Part shown: piece by piece, positions 25,337-32,802 of the stretch | How the letters are laid out: every line of letters starts with the position of its first letter | Position numbering within the stretch: position 1 is the stretch's first letter | Origin: Escherichia phage vB_vPM_PD112 | Strand: one strand, 5' to 3' | Sequence record: NC_054928.1 | DNA length: 64,000 bases | Program-made: the position numbers and the translations under genes | Notes under the pieces: generated by a model | The model's database searches: none | What the model saw: only the letters and a program-made list of their open reading frames with translations | Told to the model about the DNA's origin: nothing

Positions 25337-25626
25337 TCAGTCTCCAATTTAATGTTCATAATTCTAGCGTATGATTGTGCCATCTCCGCGCCTCGCTCTA
25401 TACATTCAAAATCGGAAGAGCACGGGTCATTTTTATAAGTCGTTCGCATAAAACTATAGAACTGTTCAGATGATTCTACGCTTTTGTTTTCAAAAAGCAT
25501 ATAAACGTGTCTAATACCAGATTCCATAAATTTATCAAAATGAGGATCGACATTCGCTTCAATCGGTGGAGATAAAGCAAACGCTAATCCTAGCATGGCA
25601 AATAGTGCCGTTGCTTTTAAGGCCAT
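25333..25626 (-). CDS. rI: lysis inhibition regulator RI (membrane-anchored periplasmic antiholin)
   Basis: 97 aa; N-terminal signal-anchor; matches recalled T4 RI. Confidence 0.85.
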   Translation of the reverse strand: MALKATALFAMLGLAFALSPPIEANVDPHFDKFMESGIRHVYMLFENKSVESSEQFYSFMRTTYKNDPCSSDFECIERGAEMAQSYARIMNIKLETE

Positions 25627-25638
25627 AAAGGCCTCCTA

Positions 25639-25851
25639 TCATTTTTGTCCTGTATTTACTTTATGCCGATGCACGGCCTTAACTTTATCAAGGTATTTTT
25701 CAAAATTTCGCAATCTAGTATAGTCTGCCGGAGATTGGTTGAGTGATACTTCTCGACGCAAAGCTGAAATGATATTTCCAACTTCCCTACGAATTTCATC
25801 TAATTGAAGAACAGTAAGATTGCGAAGTTGCTTTTCAGTTAATTGTAGCAT
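25639..25851 (-). CDS. hypothetical protein (rI.1 position)
   Basis: ORF track; ATG start. Confidence 0.5.
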
Positions 25852-25893
25852 ATATACCCCTTTAGTTAGATAAACCTATTTATAACTTTTGCA

Positions 25894-26475
25894 CTAACCG
25901 AGCTTTTTAGTTAATTCATTCCAATGTTTTCTACACAAAGAAACATAAATTTCATCACCAATACAGATTTGATTACCTTCTTTAACGGGTGTTCCATCTT
26001 CCATTAATCGAGCTGTCATAATAGCTTTTTTACCACAATGACAAACTGCCTTTAGTTCAATAAGTTTATCTGCAATCGCCAAAAGTTCTTTAGAACCTTC
26101 AAATAATTTTCCGGCGAAATCAGTCCTTAGACCATAGGCCATAACAGGAACATTATATGTATCAACAATTCGGCTCAATTGATGCACCTGTTCAGTTTTT
26201 AAAAACTGGGCTTCATCTACAAATACGCAATGAATATCTTTTTGTGCTTCAGCCCATTTATAGAACTCGAAAATATCCATATCATCTGTAATAATATTTG
26301 CTTCCTGCTTAATTCCAATGCGAGAAACGACTTCACAGACAGAATCGCGAGTATCAATAGCAGGCTTAAGAACTAATACACTCATTCCGCGCTCTTTATA
26401 ATTATGCGCAGCAGTCAAAAGAGAAGCAGATTTTCCAGCATTCATTGCTGCATAAGTAAAAATTAAACTCGCCAT
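25894..26475 (-). CDS. tk: thymidine kinase
   Basis: 193 aa; P-loop AMNAGKS; C-terminal Zn cysteines; length as T4 tk. Confidence 0.9.
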   Translation of the reverse strand: MASLIFTYAAMNAGKSASLLTAAHNYKERGMSVLVLKPAIDTRDSVCEVVSRIGIKQEANIITDDMDIFEFYKWAEAQKDIHCVFVDEAQFLKTEQVHQLSRIVDTYNVPVMAYGLRTDFAGKLFEGSKELLAIADKLIELKAVCHCGKKAIMTARLMEDGTPVKEGNQICIGDEIYVSLCRKHWNELTKKLG

Positions 26476-26484
26476 ATCACCTTC

Positions 26485-26670
26485 TTAAAGCGTATTCACA
26501 TAAGCTATTAATTCGTTTTCTTTCTTATCAAACCGATCAGCAAATTCTTCCTGCTGTTCGGGAGATAGCGGGCCGTATTCATCATAAAAGGTGTTTGCTT
26601 CTGTATGCTCATCTAGAAGTTCATGGATAAGCTCAAACAATTTATCTTTTTGTTCTTTACTCAGACTCAT
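26485..26670 (-). CDS. hypothetical acidic protein
   Basis: ORF track; ATG start. Confidence 0.45.
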   Translation of the reverse strand: MSLSKEQKDKLFELIHELLDEHTEANTFYDEYGPLSPEQQEEFADRFDKKENELIAYVNTL

Positions 26671-26840
26671 ATATTAATTTCCAGGAGTTTTAAAATAATT
26701 CGCTTTTGCTTAAATATTTCCATAGTTAAATGACCAGTATCTTTTTGACCGATTCCAATGGCAAAACCTTTATTGACAGCGAGTTCAATTAAATTATCAA
26801 GCTCACGTAACACTTCATACTGTAACTCAGAACTATTCAT
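26667..26840 (-). CDS. small hypothetical ORF (57 aa, below track cutoff)
   Basis: Hand translation MNSSELQYEVLREL...; stop overlaps next ATG (ATGA). Confidence 0.35.
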   Translation of the reverse strand: MNSSELQYEVLRELDNLIELAVNKGFAIGIGQKDTGHLTMEIFKQKRIILKLLEINI

Positions 26841-27049
26841 TTCGGTTTACCTTCTTTAACGAAATCTGGATAAGGATAAAATCCCGAATAAAATCCTTCA
26901 CCTTTATGATTGATGCATCCTTTATTAGAACAATAGCACCAATAATCGAAATCACAAGCCATTTCATCGTTGCATAAAGCAAAAACAACTGGCCATTTAC
27001 ACTTTTCACAATGGGCATTTTTAAGAATACTAGTTTGGCTCATAACCAT
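26837..27049 (-). CDS. cysteine-rich small protein (putative Zn-binding)
   Basis: Ten Cys in 70 aa; preferred over overlapping 26833-27018 frame. Confidence 0.45.
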   Translation of the reverse strand: MVMSQTSILKNAHCEKCKWPVVFALCNDEMACDFDYWCYCSNKGCINHKGEGFYSGFYPYPDFVKEGKPK

Positions 27050-27267
27050 GTAACCTTTAAGCAGTATTCTTCTACATGCTGTTTACGACCTTTCTTATCA
27101 ATAAAGGTATATTCAACGAATGTTCCAATGTAGTCTTTATCTACGTCATGTGGACTATTAATTGGGCATTTAGTACGGCAAATGCGTTCCCATTGACGAA
27201 TAATTACTGCCTTATTCTTTGGGTCATATGGATGTGGATAATGTATATTCATAATAATGGTTCCCAA
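27040..27267 (-). CDS. hypothetical protein
   Basis: ORF track. Confidence 0.45.
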   Translation of the reverse strand: MGTIIMNIHYPHPYDPKNKAVIIRQWERICRTKCPINSPHDVDKDYIGTFVEYTFIDKKGRKQHVEEYCLKVTWL

Positions 27268-27716
27268 TCAACAATCACAATTTCTAATTTAGAGGAATAT
27301 GTATCTAAAATCCCCTCAATAATATCCCAGTTCCCTTTACCTATGCCTGCACCAATCCTAGGCATATAGATTGTAGGTTTAATCAGTTTATTTTCACCAA
27401 ACTCATTTAATTCTAACATACAATTCATTAAAGCGGAATACTCAAAATTTGGCCCTGGTTGAAATTGAGTATAAAGGTTGAAGCAATACGCTTTATGAGT
27501 CCTAAAGTATTTTTCATAGACTGAGTAAGAACCAAGTTTAGTTACATCACCCCATTCAGTCTGTAATTTATCAGCTTCCAAAATTTTAGGGAAAGCTTTG
27601 GTTAATTGACCCGCTACGCCTGAACCCATAGTATGAAAACAATTGCATCCATGCGCAATATTTTTACCTTCAGCGAAAAGGGCGACAATATCGCCCTTGA
27701 TATATTTTACAATCAT
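27249..27716 (-). CDS. macrodomain protein (ADP-ribose binding/processing fold)
   Basis: N-terminal IKGDIVALFAEGKNIAHGCNCFHTMGSGVAGQL fits macro consensus (KGDIT...NAAN...GGGV). Confidence 0.55.
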   Translation of the reverse strand: MIVKYIKGDIVALFAEGKNIAHGCNCFHTMGSGVAGQLTKAFPKILEADKLQTEWGDVTKLGSYSVYEKYFRTHKAYCFNLYTQFQPGPNFEYSALMNCMLELNEFGENKLIKPTIYMPRIGAGIGKGNWDIIEGILDTYSSKLEIVIVDWEPLL

Positions 27717-28060
27717 CTAGTACTCAATCCTCGATTATAAGAATCTACCAAACGGTCAACCATTGAATGACAAGCGGCTTTATCTTTCTCCTCCGCAACT
27801 GAACATTCTAAGGTATTCCACTTTTTAGCATATCGTTTTAATAATGTATCGTTTTTGTATCTGCTTGATTTATCTCTTTCTCCGTCTTTATATGCATATA
27901 TTAATTTCTGCGCAAATTCAGCTTGGCATGCTTTATTTTTCCCACAATAATCTGCCGCAGTGCGATTTACATACTCTCTAATTTCAGTATATGATGTATT
28001 TGCTAACGCAGAAGCAGAAAATGAAATTAATCCTATACATAAAACCAAAATTTTAGTCAT
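27713..28060 (-). CDS. secreted/periplasmic small protein
   Basis: Cleavable signal peptide MTKILVLCIGLISFSASALA; four Cys. Confidence 0.5.
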   Translation of the reverse strand: MTKILVLCIGLISFSASALANTSYTEIREYVNRTAADYCGKNKACQAEFAQKLIYAYKDGERDKSSRYKNDTLLKRYAKKWNTLECSVAEEKDKAACHSMVDRLVDSYNRGLSTR

Positions 28061-28598
28061 TTACTATTTCCAAAAGTTTATTATTTTTAAGGTAATTAGC
28101 CTTTTCTAGGACTTCAGAAGCATATTTAGAACCTGCTTTAACATTCCATCCCGAATTATAAGAGGATATTGCCTTTCTTATATCGCCCTTATGTATATTT
28201 AACCAATAAGAAAGTTCAATGTACGCCCAGGAAGCTGAATTGGACCGTTTATTCAACATTCTTTTTATTTCAGCATCGGTCATATTATAACCAAGTTCCT
28301 TAACTCTCGCTCGCATAGTAGGCAAATAATTTTGGAACATTCCATAAGCGTGATGCTTTGGTTTAGATTTTAAATTAACTCCGGCAGAGCTTTCTTGCCA
28401 TAAAATAGCAGCCATTATATGACCTAATCCACCCTTGTGGATATTTTTATGTGTTTTATATTTTCCATCCTTAGAAAATTGTTCCCCGAATTGATACGCG
28501 TAACGCATGTTATCGAGTTGGACATTACTGAAAGTATGCTCGGAGCTATGTGCCATCATTGAAATGGCCAATAGACCAGCGAGTAGTGCTTTTCTCAT
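28053..28598 (-). CDS. secreted lytic transglycosylase-like protein
   Basis: Signal peptide; AILWQESSAG and YGMFQ resemble SLT-domain catalytic Glu and GLMQ motifs. Confidence 0.5.
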   Translation of the reverse strand: MRKALLAGLLAISMMAHSSEHTFSNVQLDNMRYAYQFGEQFSKDGKYKTHKNIHKGGLGHIMAAILWQESSAGVNLKSKPKHHAYGMFQNYLPTMRARVKELGYNMTDAEIKRMLNKRSNSASWAYIELSYWLNIHKGDIRKAISSYNSGWNVKAGSKYASEVLEKANYLKNNKLLEIVND

Positions 28599-28605
28599 GC
28601 TTACC

Positions 28606-29067
28606 TCATTGAGTTTTAATTACTGCTTTAGAAGCCTTTCCTGGTAAACGACGACTGTTGATAATTGCCATCCTACATTGAAGTGACGGGTCTTTGAACT
28701 TCGCGTTAGGTTTACAAACTGTAAATCCAAGCCAAAGATTTCCATCTGTGATTTCTAAACGTCCAGGACGATATTCAACCCCATCAATAAAATCCTCGTC
28801 AATGTCAGGACGCGGAGGCATACTCAGGAATTCATTAACTTCTAAAACATGGTCTTTTATTTTGTGGAATAATTCAAAAACATATGTCTCATCAATCTCC
28901 CGTTGAATTGCACGGTCAAGAAGATGCTGAGAATATTTTAGATGAAACGATGAGACCCCTGCTGCTTTTGATGCCTCACGAATCTCATTGTTAATTTGAC
29001 GAAACTCCGACTCAAAGTGACGACGGAGCTTATTTCGACGGATAAAAACTTCTGTATTGATAGTCAT
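28606..29067 (-). CDS. regB: site-specific RNA endonuclease RegB
   Basis: 153 aa as in T4; early promoter with TGGTATAAT upstream. Confidence 0.8.
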   Translation of the reverse strand: MTINTEVFIRRNKLRRHFESEFRQINNEIREASKAAGVSSFHLKYSQHLLDRAIQREIDETYVFELFHKIKDHVLEVNEFLSMPPRPDIDEDFIDGVEYRPGRLEITDGNLWLGFTVCKPNAKFKDPSLQCRMAIINSRRLPGKASKAVIKTQ

Positions 29068-29094
29068 GTTATTCTCCTCTTAACTGATAGAAAA

Positions 29095-29124
29095 ATTATA
29101 CCACAGTCAAGAGGAAAAGTAAAC
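29095..29124 (-). promoter_or_regulatory. T4-type early promoter upstream of regB
   Basis: GTTTAC N17 TGGTATAAT. Confidence 0.55.
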
Positions 29125-29126
29125 AG

Positions 29127-29447
29127 TTATTCTTTAAATCTAATCAATTTATTCATAGACTTTGAAACTTCTGCACGAACCTCATGTAGATTTTTGAGCT
29201 GTTCAAGACGCTGCTCATAGTAAGCAATTTCATCTTCTTCGAGACAGTCCTGTGAATCTTCTTTAAGATAACGTGCATAGTCCTGGAAAGCGTTACGGAC
29301 TACTTCCTGGAAGTCATCAAGACTTTGAATTTTCTTAGGAGCAACAGATACACGACGAGGGGCAGTATAATACTCATAACCAAACCCTGCACTTAATTGA
29401 GCCATTAATATTTTTCCTCTGGTTGGAACACAGCACGACAAGCCCAC
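29127..29447 (-). CDS. hypothetical protein
   Basis: ORF track. Confidence 0.45.
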
Positions 29448-29671
29448 ATACTGGCTTCTTTGAGTTTCGTTTTAGCAATAGTTAACTGATCAAGACTTTC
29501 AGCATAATTCTTCGCGAATTCACAGTCTTCACAATTATCTAACGCTTCCCAAAATTCATCATATAAAGCATCAAAGATAAGTCCTAAACGAACTTCAGCG
29601 TCTTTGATAGCATTCGCTTTACTGATTTTATCGTCAGTATGTGGCTTATAACCTTTAATGTCTTCAATCAT
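29405..29671 (-). CDS. hypothetical small acidic protein (vs.4-like position)
   Basis: ORF track; position only, no sequence-level identification. Confidence 0.45.
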
Positions 29672-29885
29672 ATTTTACTTCCTCACCTGTTCCCAAATCA
29701 TATTCAACTAAACGAATAGGTTCATGAATTCCATATCCTTGAACAGAAATTTCTGTCGTAGGATAAATTCCATCAATATCGCCCATATTCCACGCTTCAT
29801 TAAATTGCTGTTCGCCTGAATTACTAAACCACTCGGCGAAAGCATTTAGCACATCTTCAGAACCTTCAATAATTATCTTTGCCAT
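29664..29885 (-). CDS. hypothetical protein
   Basis: ORF track. Confidence 0.45.
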   Translation of the reverse strand: MAKIIIEGSEDVLNAFAEWFSNSGEQQFNEAWNMGDIDGIYPTTEISVQGYGIHEPIRLVEYDLGTGEEVKYD

Positions 29886-30247
29886 TACAAACTCTCAGTA
29901 AAGGTACGAGCAATAACGTCGCGTTGCTGTTCCGGAGTCAGAGAGTTAAAGCGAACTGCGTATCCGGATACACGGATGGTCAGCTGCGGATATTTTTCCG
30001 GATGCTTAACTGCATCTTCCAGAGTTTCACGACGCAGAACGTTTACGTTCAGGTGTTGACCACCCTCAATTTTAACTGTAGGCTGTGTTTCAATTTCAAT
30101 TTCACGGGCATGCAAACCATAGAAAATTTCTGGGTCTACAAAAGAGTCCTCTTTAAAGGTTTTAGAGACAATAATTCGTGCTTGAATACCATCTTCAAAA
30201 TAAATAGTACCTTTATGTGTGCCTTCAAGAATTTGATATGCTTTCAT
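29885..30247 (-). CDS. grcA: autonomous glycyl radical cofactor (GrcA/YfiD-like; T4 Y06I family)
   Basis: C-terminal 60 aa with RVSGYAV glycyl radical motif match recalled E. coli GrcA; 3' coding segment visibly GC-richer than surroundings. Confidence 0.85.
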
Positions 30248-30254
30248 ATAAACC

Positions 30255-30635
30255 TCAATTAGAAAATAAATTTATCCAAGATTGTTCTTTAATTAAAAAT
30301 GGCTCAGAATCATATGCCATTAAACTCTGTGTGATTAGTCCTTTAAAAGGCCCATCAATAAATTCCATGGTAAAGTATGGAATTTTATTCATTAATCTCG
30401 CATTAGGAGCAGTACATAAAACTCTGCATCCTTTGAATACGCCTTTTTGCAATTTGTATTGCTTAGGATAAAATTCGCTTAAAATGTTATTTTTTGCCAA
30501 AATTTCAAAATGATTCACCAATTTATTTTTAATAGTTTTTGGTGAAAAATAAAGATATTCGAAAAGCTGAGTGTCTGTCATCATTGCATTCCGATTACGA
30601 AAAACTGTGGACGAGTAATACCACCAATGCAGCAT
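30255..30635 (-). CDS. hypothetical protein
   Basis: ORF track. Confidence 0.45.
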
Positions 30636-31171
30636 TTACTATTGCAGCAGTGTTGCACAGTTTCAATATGAATATCGTAAATTTTATCCATATCAGGAGA
30701 TTTAACAGGCTCATCGATTATATACAAAATTCGAGAAAGCGATAAACCTCTGAACTTGCTACCTCTATTACCAACAAAACTACGGACAGAATCAGTAAAT
30801 AAACGGAATCGAATATCATCGCTAGAATAACGAGAAAATTCTTTTTTAATGCGGCCCGCAGAAATTTTAGCGTAAGCTGAAGTATTAGAAAGAACAATAA
30901 CTGTTCCACCATCATACAACCAATTAGCGGCAAAATTAGTTACTGCAGTTGATTTACCAGATTGTCTGCCACCATCTAAACGAAGTGTACAATATTCTTT
31001 AAATAAATGCGACGAATCAGGTACATAAAATCCACTATTACAAATTTCTTCTACTCTAGCATCAGAATGGTGTGTAAAAGCATTCATCAGGGATAGATAA
31101 GGACCAGTTAAAAATGTTCTCATTTTATTCTCTCTAAATTTGGGCCATTCCATGGCGCATGAATTGTCCAT
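30581..31171 (-). CDS. P-loop NTPase-like protein
   Basis: Walker A GGRQSGKST, Walker B-like ILYIIDEP; start may be internal Met (residue 17, near 31123). Confidence 0.5.
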   Translation of the reverse strand: MDNSCAMEWPKFRENKMRTFLTGPYLSLMNAFTHHSDARVEEICNSGFYVPDSSHLFKEYCTLRLDGGRQSGKSTAVTNFAANWLYDGGTVIVLSNTSAYAKISAGRIKKEFSRYSSDDIRFRLFTDSVRSFVGNRGSKFRGLSLSRILYIIDEPVKSPDMDKIYDIHIETVQHCCNSKCCIGGITRPQFFVIGMQ

Positions 31172-31264
31172 TTCTGTATTTACCCATTACCGCACTTGGG
31201 CTCGACCTTATTACAGGTTGGCGGGAATCCCTCACAGAATCATGAGGTCCAGGTTGTTCCCATG

Positions 31265-31738
31265 TTATTTGAACGATTTAACGTACTGAATAGAACCTTT
31301 ACTATTCACGAAAGCGATTTTACCATTTTTATTATACATGGTAGCAGTACGCTGATAACCATAAGTTTGTTTACCAGATTGATAACCAACTAATGCGAAA
31401 TTATCTTCACCCATTTTATTCTGTTTAGCGCGAATACGTTCATGTCCATGCGCCATAAGAACCTTAGCATCACCAGTTGCAATGGATCGACGAGTTTTTT
31501 CATCTTCAACTGTATTAACAAAATCATCAAATGAATCAAATTTAGCATGAGATTTATTATACAGTTTTCCATCTACTGCATAATTATATCCCTGTACATC
31601 CATCTCAACTTCTGTGCCATCATCTAATACAGCAGTAATTTTCTGTCCTTTTTTAAATTTCAAAAGATCAGTAAAAGATTCAGCAATAATTTGAGAATTA
31701 ATAGCTGCTTCAGTAATAAATTCTTGATATGTTTTCAT
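31265..31738 (-). CDS. internal (capsid-packaged) protein with capsid targeting sequence
   Basis: N-terminus MKTYQEFITEA matches T4 internal-protein CTS (MKTYQEFIAEA) with xxE cleavage context; lies next to e as ipIII does in T4. Confidence 0.65.
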   Translation of the reverse strand: MKTYQEFITEAAINSQIIAESFTDLLKFKKGQKITAVLDDGTEVEMDVQGYNYAVDGKLYNKSHAKFDSFDDFVNTVEDEKTRRSIATGDAKVLMAHGHERIRAKQNKMGEDNFALVGYQSGKQTYGYQRTATMYNKNGKIAFVNSKGSIQYVKSFK

Positions 31739-32346: not shown

Positions 32347-32802
32347 TTAAAAGAGGTTGTTCATTATTCGGTAAAGTGAAGGACCCATCACATATTGCCA
32401 CTGAGTACGAGGAATAAGAGCAAAAGCGTCCATCTCTGGAATCATAACGCCATCTTTATTTTCAAAATAAGACTCGCAATGGCAATTTCTAAACATCTCA
32501 TGCTCTACTGGAATCGTATAATAAAATAACTGTAAGTCTTTATTACTAGAATATTTAAATACACCTAGGTCTTCTAGAAGGTCTGGATTATAATTGCTAA
32601 AACCAGTCTCTTCTAAACATTCTCTTCGTGCTGCATCTAGTACGCTTAAATCAGAATTTTCTACGCGGCCCTTTGGGATATCCCAGCGATGTGCCATCAT
32701 TCCAGGCTTACGAGAACCAGTAACCCGTCCCATGAATAAATCTTTATCTTCGGTCATAAAGATAATACCAGCTGATAGTGTTTTCATTTTAATTTCCTGC
32801 AT
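32347..32802 (-). CDS. nudE: Nudix hydrolase NudE
   Basis: 151 aa; Nudix box GRVENSDLSVLDAARRECLEETGF. Confidence 0.85.
   Translation of the reverse strand: MQEIKMKTLSAGIIFMTEDKDLFMGRVTGSRKPGMMAHRWDIPKGRVENSDLSVLDAARRECLEETGFSNYNPDLLEDLGVFKYSSNKDLQLFYYTIPVEHEMFRNCHCESYFENKDGVMIPEMDAFALIPRTQWQYVMGPSLYRIMNNLF

Follow-up and report, generated by a model that had tools for sequence, protein, structure and literature searches.

DarTG systems block phages through ADP-ribosylation of phage DNA. A locus of Escherichia phage vB_vPM_PD112 raises the question of whether a small macrodomain protein counters such a toxin and by what chemistry it might do so. The locus lies in a stretch of 64,000 nucleotides (sequence record NC_054928.1), termed here the window. 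The original prediction from this DNA proposed a macrodomain protein of 155 amino acids, with ADP-ribosylating toxins as its possible target and NAD-derived defence signals as another.

The gene and its locus

The open reading frame had been placed correctly at 27249–27716, and its sequence was also correct; the strand, previously left unstated, is the minus strand. In the list of open reading frames it is ATG-initiated and encodes 155 amino acids. The protein is 100.0% identical by tblastn, over 155 amino acids, to phage T4 Tk.4 ("ORF 60.5" of record X04567), and RB69 Tk.4 is 83.7% identical to it by the same method. A 1.3-kb stretch that includes tk.4 is 100% identical to the Tequatrovirus phages IME339 and IME537 and is matched in 658 phage records; from this identity, the phage may be closely related to T4 and not T4 as such. 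The annotated neighbours in the identical records are thymidine kinase, several small open reading frames, vs, an SLT-domain protein and the RegB endoribonuclease. These annotations are confirmed by Pfam matches to TK, RegB and SLT that flank tk.4. The gene order displays T4 synteny, i.e., tk, small open reading frames, tk.4, vs, vs.1 (SLT) and regB, and because vs is upstream of tk.4 the locus is the tk-vs-regB early region of T4. The features that concern expression are the following.

27249–27716, minus strand: tk.4 (adfM) coding sequence, 155 amino acids, one macrodomain without an extra domain
27713–28060, minus strand: vs (valyl-tRNA synthetase modifier), upstream neighbour of tk.4, from the annotations of identical records
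27713–27716, minus strand: ATGA overlap of the tk.4 start codon (27716–27714) and the vs stop codon (27715–27713), from the sequence and the reading frame coordinates
27728–27732, minus strand: putative Shine-Dalgarno-like element (GAGGA) within the end of vs, 11 nt before the tk.4 ATG, read from the mRNA-sense sequence

The ATGA overlap and the tight packing of genes suggest that tk.4 is translationally coupled to vs in one early transcript or operon. A scan of positions 25500–31500 gave 26 sigma-70 promoter-like sites where 22.5 were expected and five terminator-like sites where 3.7 were expected. As neither class of site is enriched, the timing of tk.4 expression is still something that we infer. 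Transcriptomic data on tk.4 were not found in the literature, and the folding of the translation-initiation region is not unusual (z = −1.43).

Several smaller features surround the gene. The 3′ end of tk.4 overlaps the next open reading frame (27040–27267, DUF7202) by 19 nt. Just 3′ of the tk.4 start codon, an inverted repeat with perfect 8-bp arms and a loop of 5 nt, AAGGGCGA-CAATA-TCGCCCTT, occupies 27678–27698 (nt 19–39 of the open reading frame) and was flagged as terminator-like on the plus strand. The vs gene (27713–28060, minus strand) has no Pfam match. It is the T4 gene most strongly depleted in minimal medium, and the DarTG2 assays described below were likewise performed in M9 glucose, at 30 °C (bioRxiv 10.1101/2025.11.20.689424); given these conditions, the depletion of vs may be relevant.

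Fold and class

The peptide originally quoted as a macrodomain signature corresponds to residues 6–38 of Tk.4, and the domain call is borne out by four independent lines of evidence. The Pfam Macro profile PF01661 matches with 27.7 bits (cut-off 22; E = 2.9e-6) over 112 of its 118 positions. Comparison with PDB sequences by phmmer yields BT1257 (1.3e-9), yeast Poa1p (2.8e-6), SCO6735 (3.3e-4), Thermus aquaticus DarG (5.2e-4) and human TARG1 (6e-4). An AlphaFold2 model made from a 45-sequence alignment has a mean pLDDT of 95.8 and a pTM of 0.90, and it displays the three-layer alpha/beta/alpha macro fold. The closest structural neighbours belong to the ALC1/TARG1-like class, taken here as TARG1, DarG, SCO6735, BT1257, Poa1p and ALC1, and the MacroD, viral and PARG types are set apart. 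Tk.4 is therefore assigned to this class; its identity to every characterised relative is low, at 20–29%. A plus-strand match to a mixed reference profile near 60.6 kb (12.6 bits) was taken as noise.

Active-site residues

Members of the Tk.4 family were aligned by MAFFT L-INS-i with the DarG macrodomains of Mycobacterium tuberculosis and T. aquaticus, TARG1, BT1257 and SCO6735 (all from the PDB) and with PhiKZ gp104, whose sequence was taken from the methods of the 2026 Cell Reports paper. Residue counts refer to 258 family members, 257 of them full-length, which include the top 150 representatives from a library of 1.84 billion proteins. The SCO6735 numbering (H24, N27, K34, Q85 and K89) was checked on the PDB chain and agrees with that published (PMC9411070). 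The mapped features are given below.

27639–27653, minus strand: H22-G23-C24-N25-C26, active-site strand/loop motif, from the residue map
27612–27629, minus strand: M30-G31-S32-G33-V34-A35, first glycine-rich (phosphate-binding) loop, aligned with MGKGIA of DarG and MGAGIA of TARG1
27465–27479, minus strand: N80-L81-Y82-T83-Q84, position of the catalytic lysine, from the alignments and the codons read from the sequence
27327–27362, minus strand: P119-R-I-G-A-G-I-G-K-G-N-W130, second glycine-rich (diphosphate/distal-ribose) loop, from the alignments
27639–27641, 27570–27572 and 27471–27473, minus strand: the family-specific residues C26, D49 and Y82, respectively

Both glycine-rich loops for ADP-ribose are present and are invariant or nearly so in the family. 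In the first loop, neither G33 nor A35 varies in the 45-sequence alignment, and G33 is kept in 257 of the 258 members; in the second, P119 is kept in 255, G122 in 256 and G124 in 256. G126 lies at the position of TARG1 D125, where DarG likewise has a glycine. In the active-site motif, the aligned counterparts of H22 are SCO6735 H24 and TARG1 H32, and those of N25 are SCO6735 N27, DarG N22 and PhiKZ AdfM N23. H22 is found in 247 of the 258 members, and G23, N25 and C26 are each found in 257.

The position of the catalytic lysine is occupied by a glutamine. The segment N80-L-Y-T83-Q84 aligns with N76-F-P-T79-K80 of DarG and L-I-T83-K84 of TARG1, which places Q84 at the position of DarG K80, TARG1 K84, PhiKZ AdfM K78 and SCO6735 Gln85. 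Glutamine is present here in all 257 full-length family members and is invariant in the 45-sequence alignment. The expectation that binding and catalytic residues would be found on alignment thus holds for the glycine loops and the conserved asparagine and fails for the lysine of DarG and TARG1. The missing lysine is not a refutation of activity, because in SCO6735 Gln85 is essential and the enzyme cleaves thymidine-ADP-ribose DNA.

SCO6735 of Streptomyces coelicolor outpaces DarG and TARG1 in stripping DarT-made thymidine-ADP-ribose off DNA, and it rescues Escherichia coli from DarT toxicity; the Q85A and Q85E mutants are inactive, and a water-mediated, lysine-independent mechanism has been proposed (PMC9411070). 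SCO6735 and BT1257 of Bacteroides thetaiotaomicron, which are lysine-less and ALC1-like, share 21–29% identity with Tk.4. The residues that mark their subclass are all present in Tk.4 (Q84 for Q85, H22 for H24 and N25 for N27). The other mark of the subclass, a "mobile loop" five residues longer than that of DarG and TARG1 (PMC9411070), is not; Tk.4 lacks the HGMKTG/HGIYKD insertion and has a loop of the DarG/TARG1 length. In addition, the DNA-contacting K34 and K89 of SCO6735 are replaced by S32 and G88, and Tk.4 is phage-borne whereas SCO6735 and BT1257 are chromosomal. The analogy is incomplete, since the longer loop and K34/K89 are missing, and membership in the subclass is partial.

Three residues set the phage family apart. 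In addition to C26, these are D49, found in 257 of the 258 members, and Y82, found in all 257 full-length ones. DarG, TARG1, SCO6735 and BT1257 differ, with mostly a tyrosine at the D49 position and an isoleucine or proline at the Y82 position. On these comparisons, Tk.4 is best described as a glutamine-type macrodomain like SCO6735, with a DarG-like loop architecture and invariant residues of its own.

The alignments also bear on a housekeeping role, in which Tk.4 would be an ADP-ribose-1′′-phosphate phosphatase similar to Poa1p or an O-acetyl-ADP-ribose deacetylase. Poa1p His23 and Ser30 were taken as the catalytically important residues mutated in PDB entries 6LFS and 6LFT. His23 aligns with H22 of Tk.4; the Ser30 position corresponds to T29, which varies in the family (threonine in 30 of 45 sequences). 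At the position of the invariant Q84, Poa1p has a serine in the phmmer alignment, which argues against a Poa1p-like role. The phosphatase and deacetylase labels carried by family members are homology transfers without experimental support. The T4 tRNA-repair route (Pnkp and Rnl1) is also not known to form Appr>p, and this too counts against a phosphatase. In the HIDEN-SEQ preprint, the sole phenotype given for tk.4 mutants is DarTG2 sensitivity (bioRxiv 10.1101/2025.11.20.689424). A housekeeping function is therefore considered very unlikely.

Relation to DarG and to other anti-DarT factors

Several properties separate Tk.4 from DarG. It scores 30.3 bits with the NCBIfam DarG model NF048014, for which the cut-off is 250, and it matches positions 2–145 of 329 in the PADLOC DarG profile, as the protein stops after the macrodomain. 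The DarG macrodomains of M. tuberculosis (5M3I) and T. aquaticus (5M31/5M3E) carry K80 in N-F-P-T-K, whereas Tk.4 has Q84; DarG has a C-terminal DarT-binding domain and Tk.4 has none. A darG gene is expected beside darT, but the neighbours of tk.4 are vs and small T4 open reading frames, and a DarT gene was not found beside the Tk.4 homologues of the related contigs L005–L008. From the low score and the missing lysine, C-terminal domain and adjacent darT, Tk.4 is not classed as a DarG. Human TARG1 (OARD1) differs in a similar way: it has a K84/D125 dyad, and Tk.4 has Q84 and G126 at these positions.

A second phage protein has been given the name AdfM. PhiKZ gp104 strips an oligonucleotide of the ADP-ribose added by DarT2, the N23A mutant is less active, and the protein is imported into the phage nucleus (PMC13309987, Cell Rep 2026). 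Like Tk.4, it is a stand-alone phage macrodomain directed against DarTG2. However, gp104 scores 97 bits with M. tuberculosis DarG and keeps the lysine (K78 in FPTK), and its match to T4 Tk.4 amounts to 20 bits over 26 residues only. Sequence comparison thus indicates that the T4 and PhiKZ AdfM proteins are functional analogues in one structural class and not orthologues, and for this reason the biochemistry of gp104 is not simply transferable to T4 Tk.4.

T4 has another anti-DarT factor. AdfN, a NADAR protein encoded by gene 30.3, erases guanine-ADP-ribose formed by DarT1 and gives no protection against DarTG2 (PMC11825919). AdfN and Tk.4, the latter a putative hydrolase, share the strategy of an orphan antitoxin-like hydrolase against DarT lesions in the same phage; their folds are unrelated, and the AdfN gene lies outside the window. 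ICP1 AdfB was set aside as a macrodomain precedent, as it works through direct contact with DarT and has been likened to the toxin-occluding C-terminal domain of DarG, with no mention of a macrodomain in the paper concerned (PMC11481870).

Requirement for tk.4 on DarTG2 hosts

T4 without AdfN is still resistant to DarTG2 (PMC11825919), and a second factor was therefore implied. The HIDEN-SEQ preprint of 20 November 2025, which is without peer review, shows that T4 requires tk.4 on DarTG2 hosts. In a T4 transposon library grown on a DarTG2-expressing host, tk.4 alone was significantly depleted, and a clean tk.4 deletion rendered T4 sensitive to DarTG2, with T5 as the sensitive control (bioRxiv 10.1101/2025.11.20.689424). 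As the T4 protein is identical to that of the window and its gene likewise lies between tk and vs, the predicted role against an ADP-ribosylating toxin has genetic support, and the DarT-type toxin test proposed for it had already been done in T4. The alternative of a role against NAD-derived defence signals found no support in the present analysis. The preprint points out a structural resemblance to M. tuberculosis DarG and gives the gene the new name adfM, for anti-DarT factor Macrodomain; of enzymatic removal of ADP-ribose from DNA by T4 AdfM, it says only that this "seems likely" (bioRxiv 10.1101/2025.11.20.689424). No discussion of the lysine-to-glutamine difference was found in the available text of that preprint. 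The requirement for tk.4 on DarTG2 hosts was thus made public in late 2025, and GenBank annotations already contain the domain call.

The T5 genome is consistent with this role. All six-frame open reading frames of the whole T5 genome were compared with a Tk.4-family HMM and a mixed ALC1-like HMM, and no Tk.4-like or ALC1-like macrodomain was found; the best score was 9.1 bits compared with 210.9 for the window gene. Both T-even studies used T5 as their DarTG2-sensitive control, and the missing homologue agrees with the function assigned to Tk.4. T5.105 ("Sir2") was considered as a hidden macrodomain and rejected, as it matches neither profile.

It might also be asked if Tk.4 undoes or adjusts the modification of host proteins or RNA by the phage's own ADP-ribosyltransferases Alt, ModA and ModB. 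Arginine is the residue that Alt and the Mod enzymes modify. The substrates of ALC1/TARG1-like macrodomains are acidic-residue esters and thymine or uracil N-glycosides, not arginine-linked ADP-ribose, and there are no alt or mod genes near tk.4 within the window. T4 does have three ADP-ribosyltransferases (PMC9503650), so that a cognate eraser is conceivable, but in the transposon screen T4 could do without tk.4 on plain E. coli K-12 (bioRxiv 10.1101/2025.11.20.689424). This role is regarded as highly improbable.

Proposed mechanism

The explanation that we consider likely is that tk.4/adfM encodes an early ALC1/TARG1-like macrodomain that hydrolyses DarT2-made thymidine-ADP-ribose on DNA by an SCO6735-like, lysine-independent chemistry. 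The protein would be made early, from the minus-strand tk-vs-regB block. DarT2, the toxin of the host DarTG2 system, places ADP-ribose on thymidines of single-stranded phage DNA and thereby stalls replication. Tk.4 would hold the ADP-ribose by its two glycine loops and hydrolyse the thymine-N3-ribose bond, to give free ADP-ribose and normal DNA. Catalysis is predicted to depend on Q84, together with H22 and N25, with no participation of a lysine. With the catalytic lysine missing, a DarG-type chemistry is improbable; by analogy, the lysine-independent SCO6735 type is more likely.

A stand-alone NUDIX protein (52.4 bits) is encoded at 32347–32802 (minus strand), adjoining the lysozyme gene e and ~4.6 kb from tk.4. 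It is presumably T4 nudE.1, which is active on ADP-ribose, and it could dispose of the ADP-ribose released by Tk.4.

The main rival to hydrolysis is that Tk.4 protects largely without catalysis, either by binding to DarT2 or by shielding the modified site, and blocks the toxin in a stoichiometric "interaction-inhibition". Inactive forms of SCO6735 (Q85A), DarG (K80A) and TARG1 (K84A) inhibit DarT in vitro, SCO6735 most strongly (PMC9411070). The knockout phenotype of tk.4 is thus no proof by itself of hydrolysis, because the SCO6735 and DarG macrodomains bind DarT and inhibit it even when they are catalytically dead. The direct interaction by which ICP1 AdfB counters DarT (PMC11481870) and the missing DarG lysine also favour a non-catalytic protein. 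On the other hand, the C-terminal domain by which DarG binds DarT is absent from the 155-amino-acid protein, which covers positions 2–145 of the 329 in the PADLOC profile. H22, N25, Q84 and the glycine loops are also near-absolutely conserved in 257 diverse members, a pattern that is enzyme-like and unlike that of a binder of one fast-evolving toxin. Protection chiefly by binding is therefore judged unlikely, and hydrolysis of thymidine-ADP-ribose is retained as the preferred reading.

Breadth of the family and domain fusions

Macrodomains are common in phages and are found in 41% of myoviruses (PMC9503650). Homologues of Tk.4 were detected in 2749 of 50,697 phage records. They occur in T4-like, KVP40-like, FelixO1-like and other groups that infect many host genera, and the family comprises 1135 clusters at E ≤ 1e-30.

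Such breadth is hard to pin on one defence system, and Tk.4 could be an eraser of broader spectrum that also removes other base- or phosphate-linked ADP-ribose, e.g., from uracil-modified RNA or lesions of DarT-like exotoxins, with DarTG2 as the one target found so far. SCO6735, DarG and TARG1 do hydrolyse uracil-ADP-ribose on single-stranded RNA (PMC13036486). In published assays, however, SCO6735 is inactive on guanine-ADP-ribose, on ADP-ribose at the 2′-OH of RNA and on 5′-phosphate-linked ADP-ribose, and reviews describe the adenine-ADP-ribose that CmdT forms on mRNA as irreversible. A broad specificity is accordingly judged improbable.

Fusions of the Tk.4-type macrodomain with other domains were also found. 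NADAR is the fold of the guanine-ADP-ribose DNA hydrolases AdfN and DarG1, and NUDIX enzymes typically degrade free ADP-ribose. The metagenomic protein P0218 (472 amino acids; 6001–7419 of contig L007 and also 6001–7419 of L008) consists of a macrodomain, a NADAR domain (97.7 bits) and DUF4326 (74.4 bits). Its macrodomain is of the Tk.4 type, with the HGCNC, NAYTQ and PLIGCG motifs kept. P0203 is a fusion of a Tk.4-type macrodomain with NUDIX. Judged from domain content, both the NADAR and the NUDIX fusions would fit an enzyme that frees ADP-ribose from nucleic acid, and they favour catalysis over plain DarT2 binding.

In P0218, one polypeptide unites the folds of the two anti-DarT activities known to be enzymatic, the thymine- and guanine-ADP-ribose erasers. 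A stand-alone DUF4326 gene is present at 41–343 of contig L005, 1.6 kb upstream of a Tk.4 homologue and beside RNA ligase 1; its occurrence on a T4-like phage contig echoes the Macro-NADAR-DUF4326 fusion.

A bacterial origin or a DarT partner was sought through P0072 and P0118, homologues assigned to metagenome-assembled genomes (MAGs), and was rejected, as these are on T4-like phage contigs with no DarT gene nearby. The contigs labelled "Bacilli bacterium" and "Culicoidibacterales bacterium" (GCA_051648945.1 and GCA_051660865.1; L005 and L006) encode Rnl1, Pnkp, dCMP deaminase and a T4 spanin, and they probably derive from phages and were binned into bacterial MAGs.

A tentative hypothesis, to which we give somewhat less than even weight, is that the Tk.4 family is not a captured DarG but a distinct, essentially phage-borne third ALC1/TARG1-like lineage. 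It would combine SCO6735-type glutamine chemistry with a loop of DarG length and its own C26, D49 and Y82, and the T4 and PhiKZ AdfM proteins would have been recruited independently. The breadth of the family might then mean that its members remove ADP-ribose from a wider range of nucleic-acid lesions than those of DarT2 alone.

Annotation and significance

Genes identical or nearly identical to tk.4 are variously labelled as hypothetical protein, phosphatase, Poa1p-like, macro domain protein, ADP-ribose binding module or OAADPr deacetylase. PHROG 335 and RefSeq give "phosphatase" and JGI gives "O-acetyl-ADP-ribose deacetylase"; none of the labels reflects the DarTG2 phenotype. "Phosphatase", as used by PHROG 335 and RefSeq, is probably a misnomer. 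The name AdfM is now shared by two non-orthologous proteins, and this could mislead annotation transfer.

The present analysis adds the invariant Q84, the non-orthology of PhiKZ and T4 AdfM, the T5 genome without a homologue and the fusions with NADAR plus DUF4326 and with NUDIX. The remaining value of Tk.4 is mechanistic and modest, and it concerns the lysine-to-glutamine difference and lysine-independent de-ADP-ribosylation of DNA. As T4 Tk.4 is barred from the lysine mechanism of DarG and TARG1, it offers a second natural test case for the proposed, poorly understood glutamine chemistry of SCO6735. Phage genes that erase the DarT mark help explain host range and matter for the design of phage therapy.
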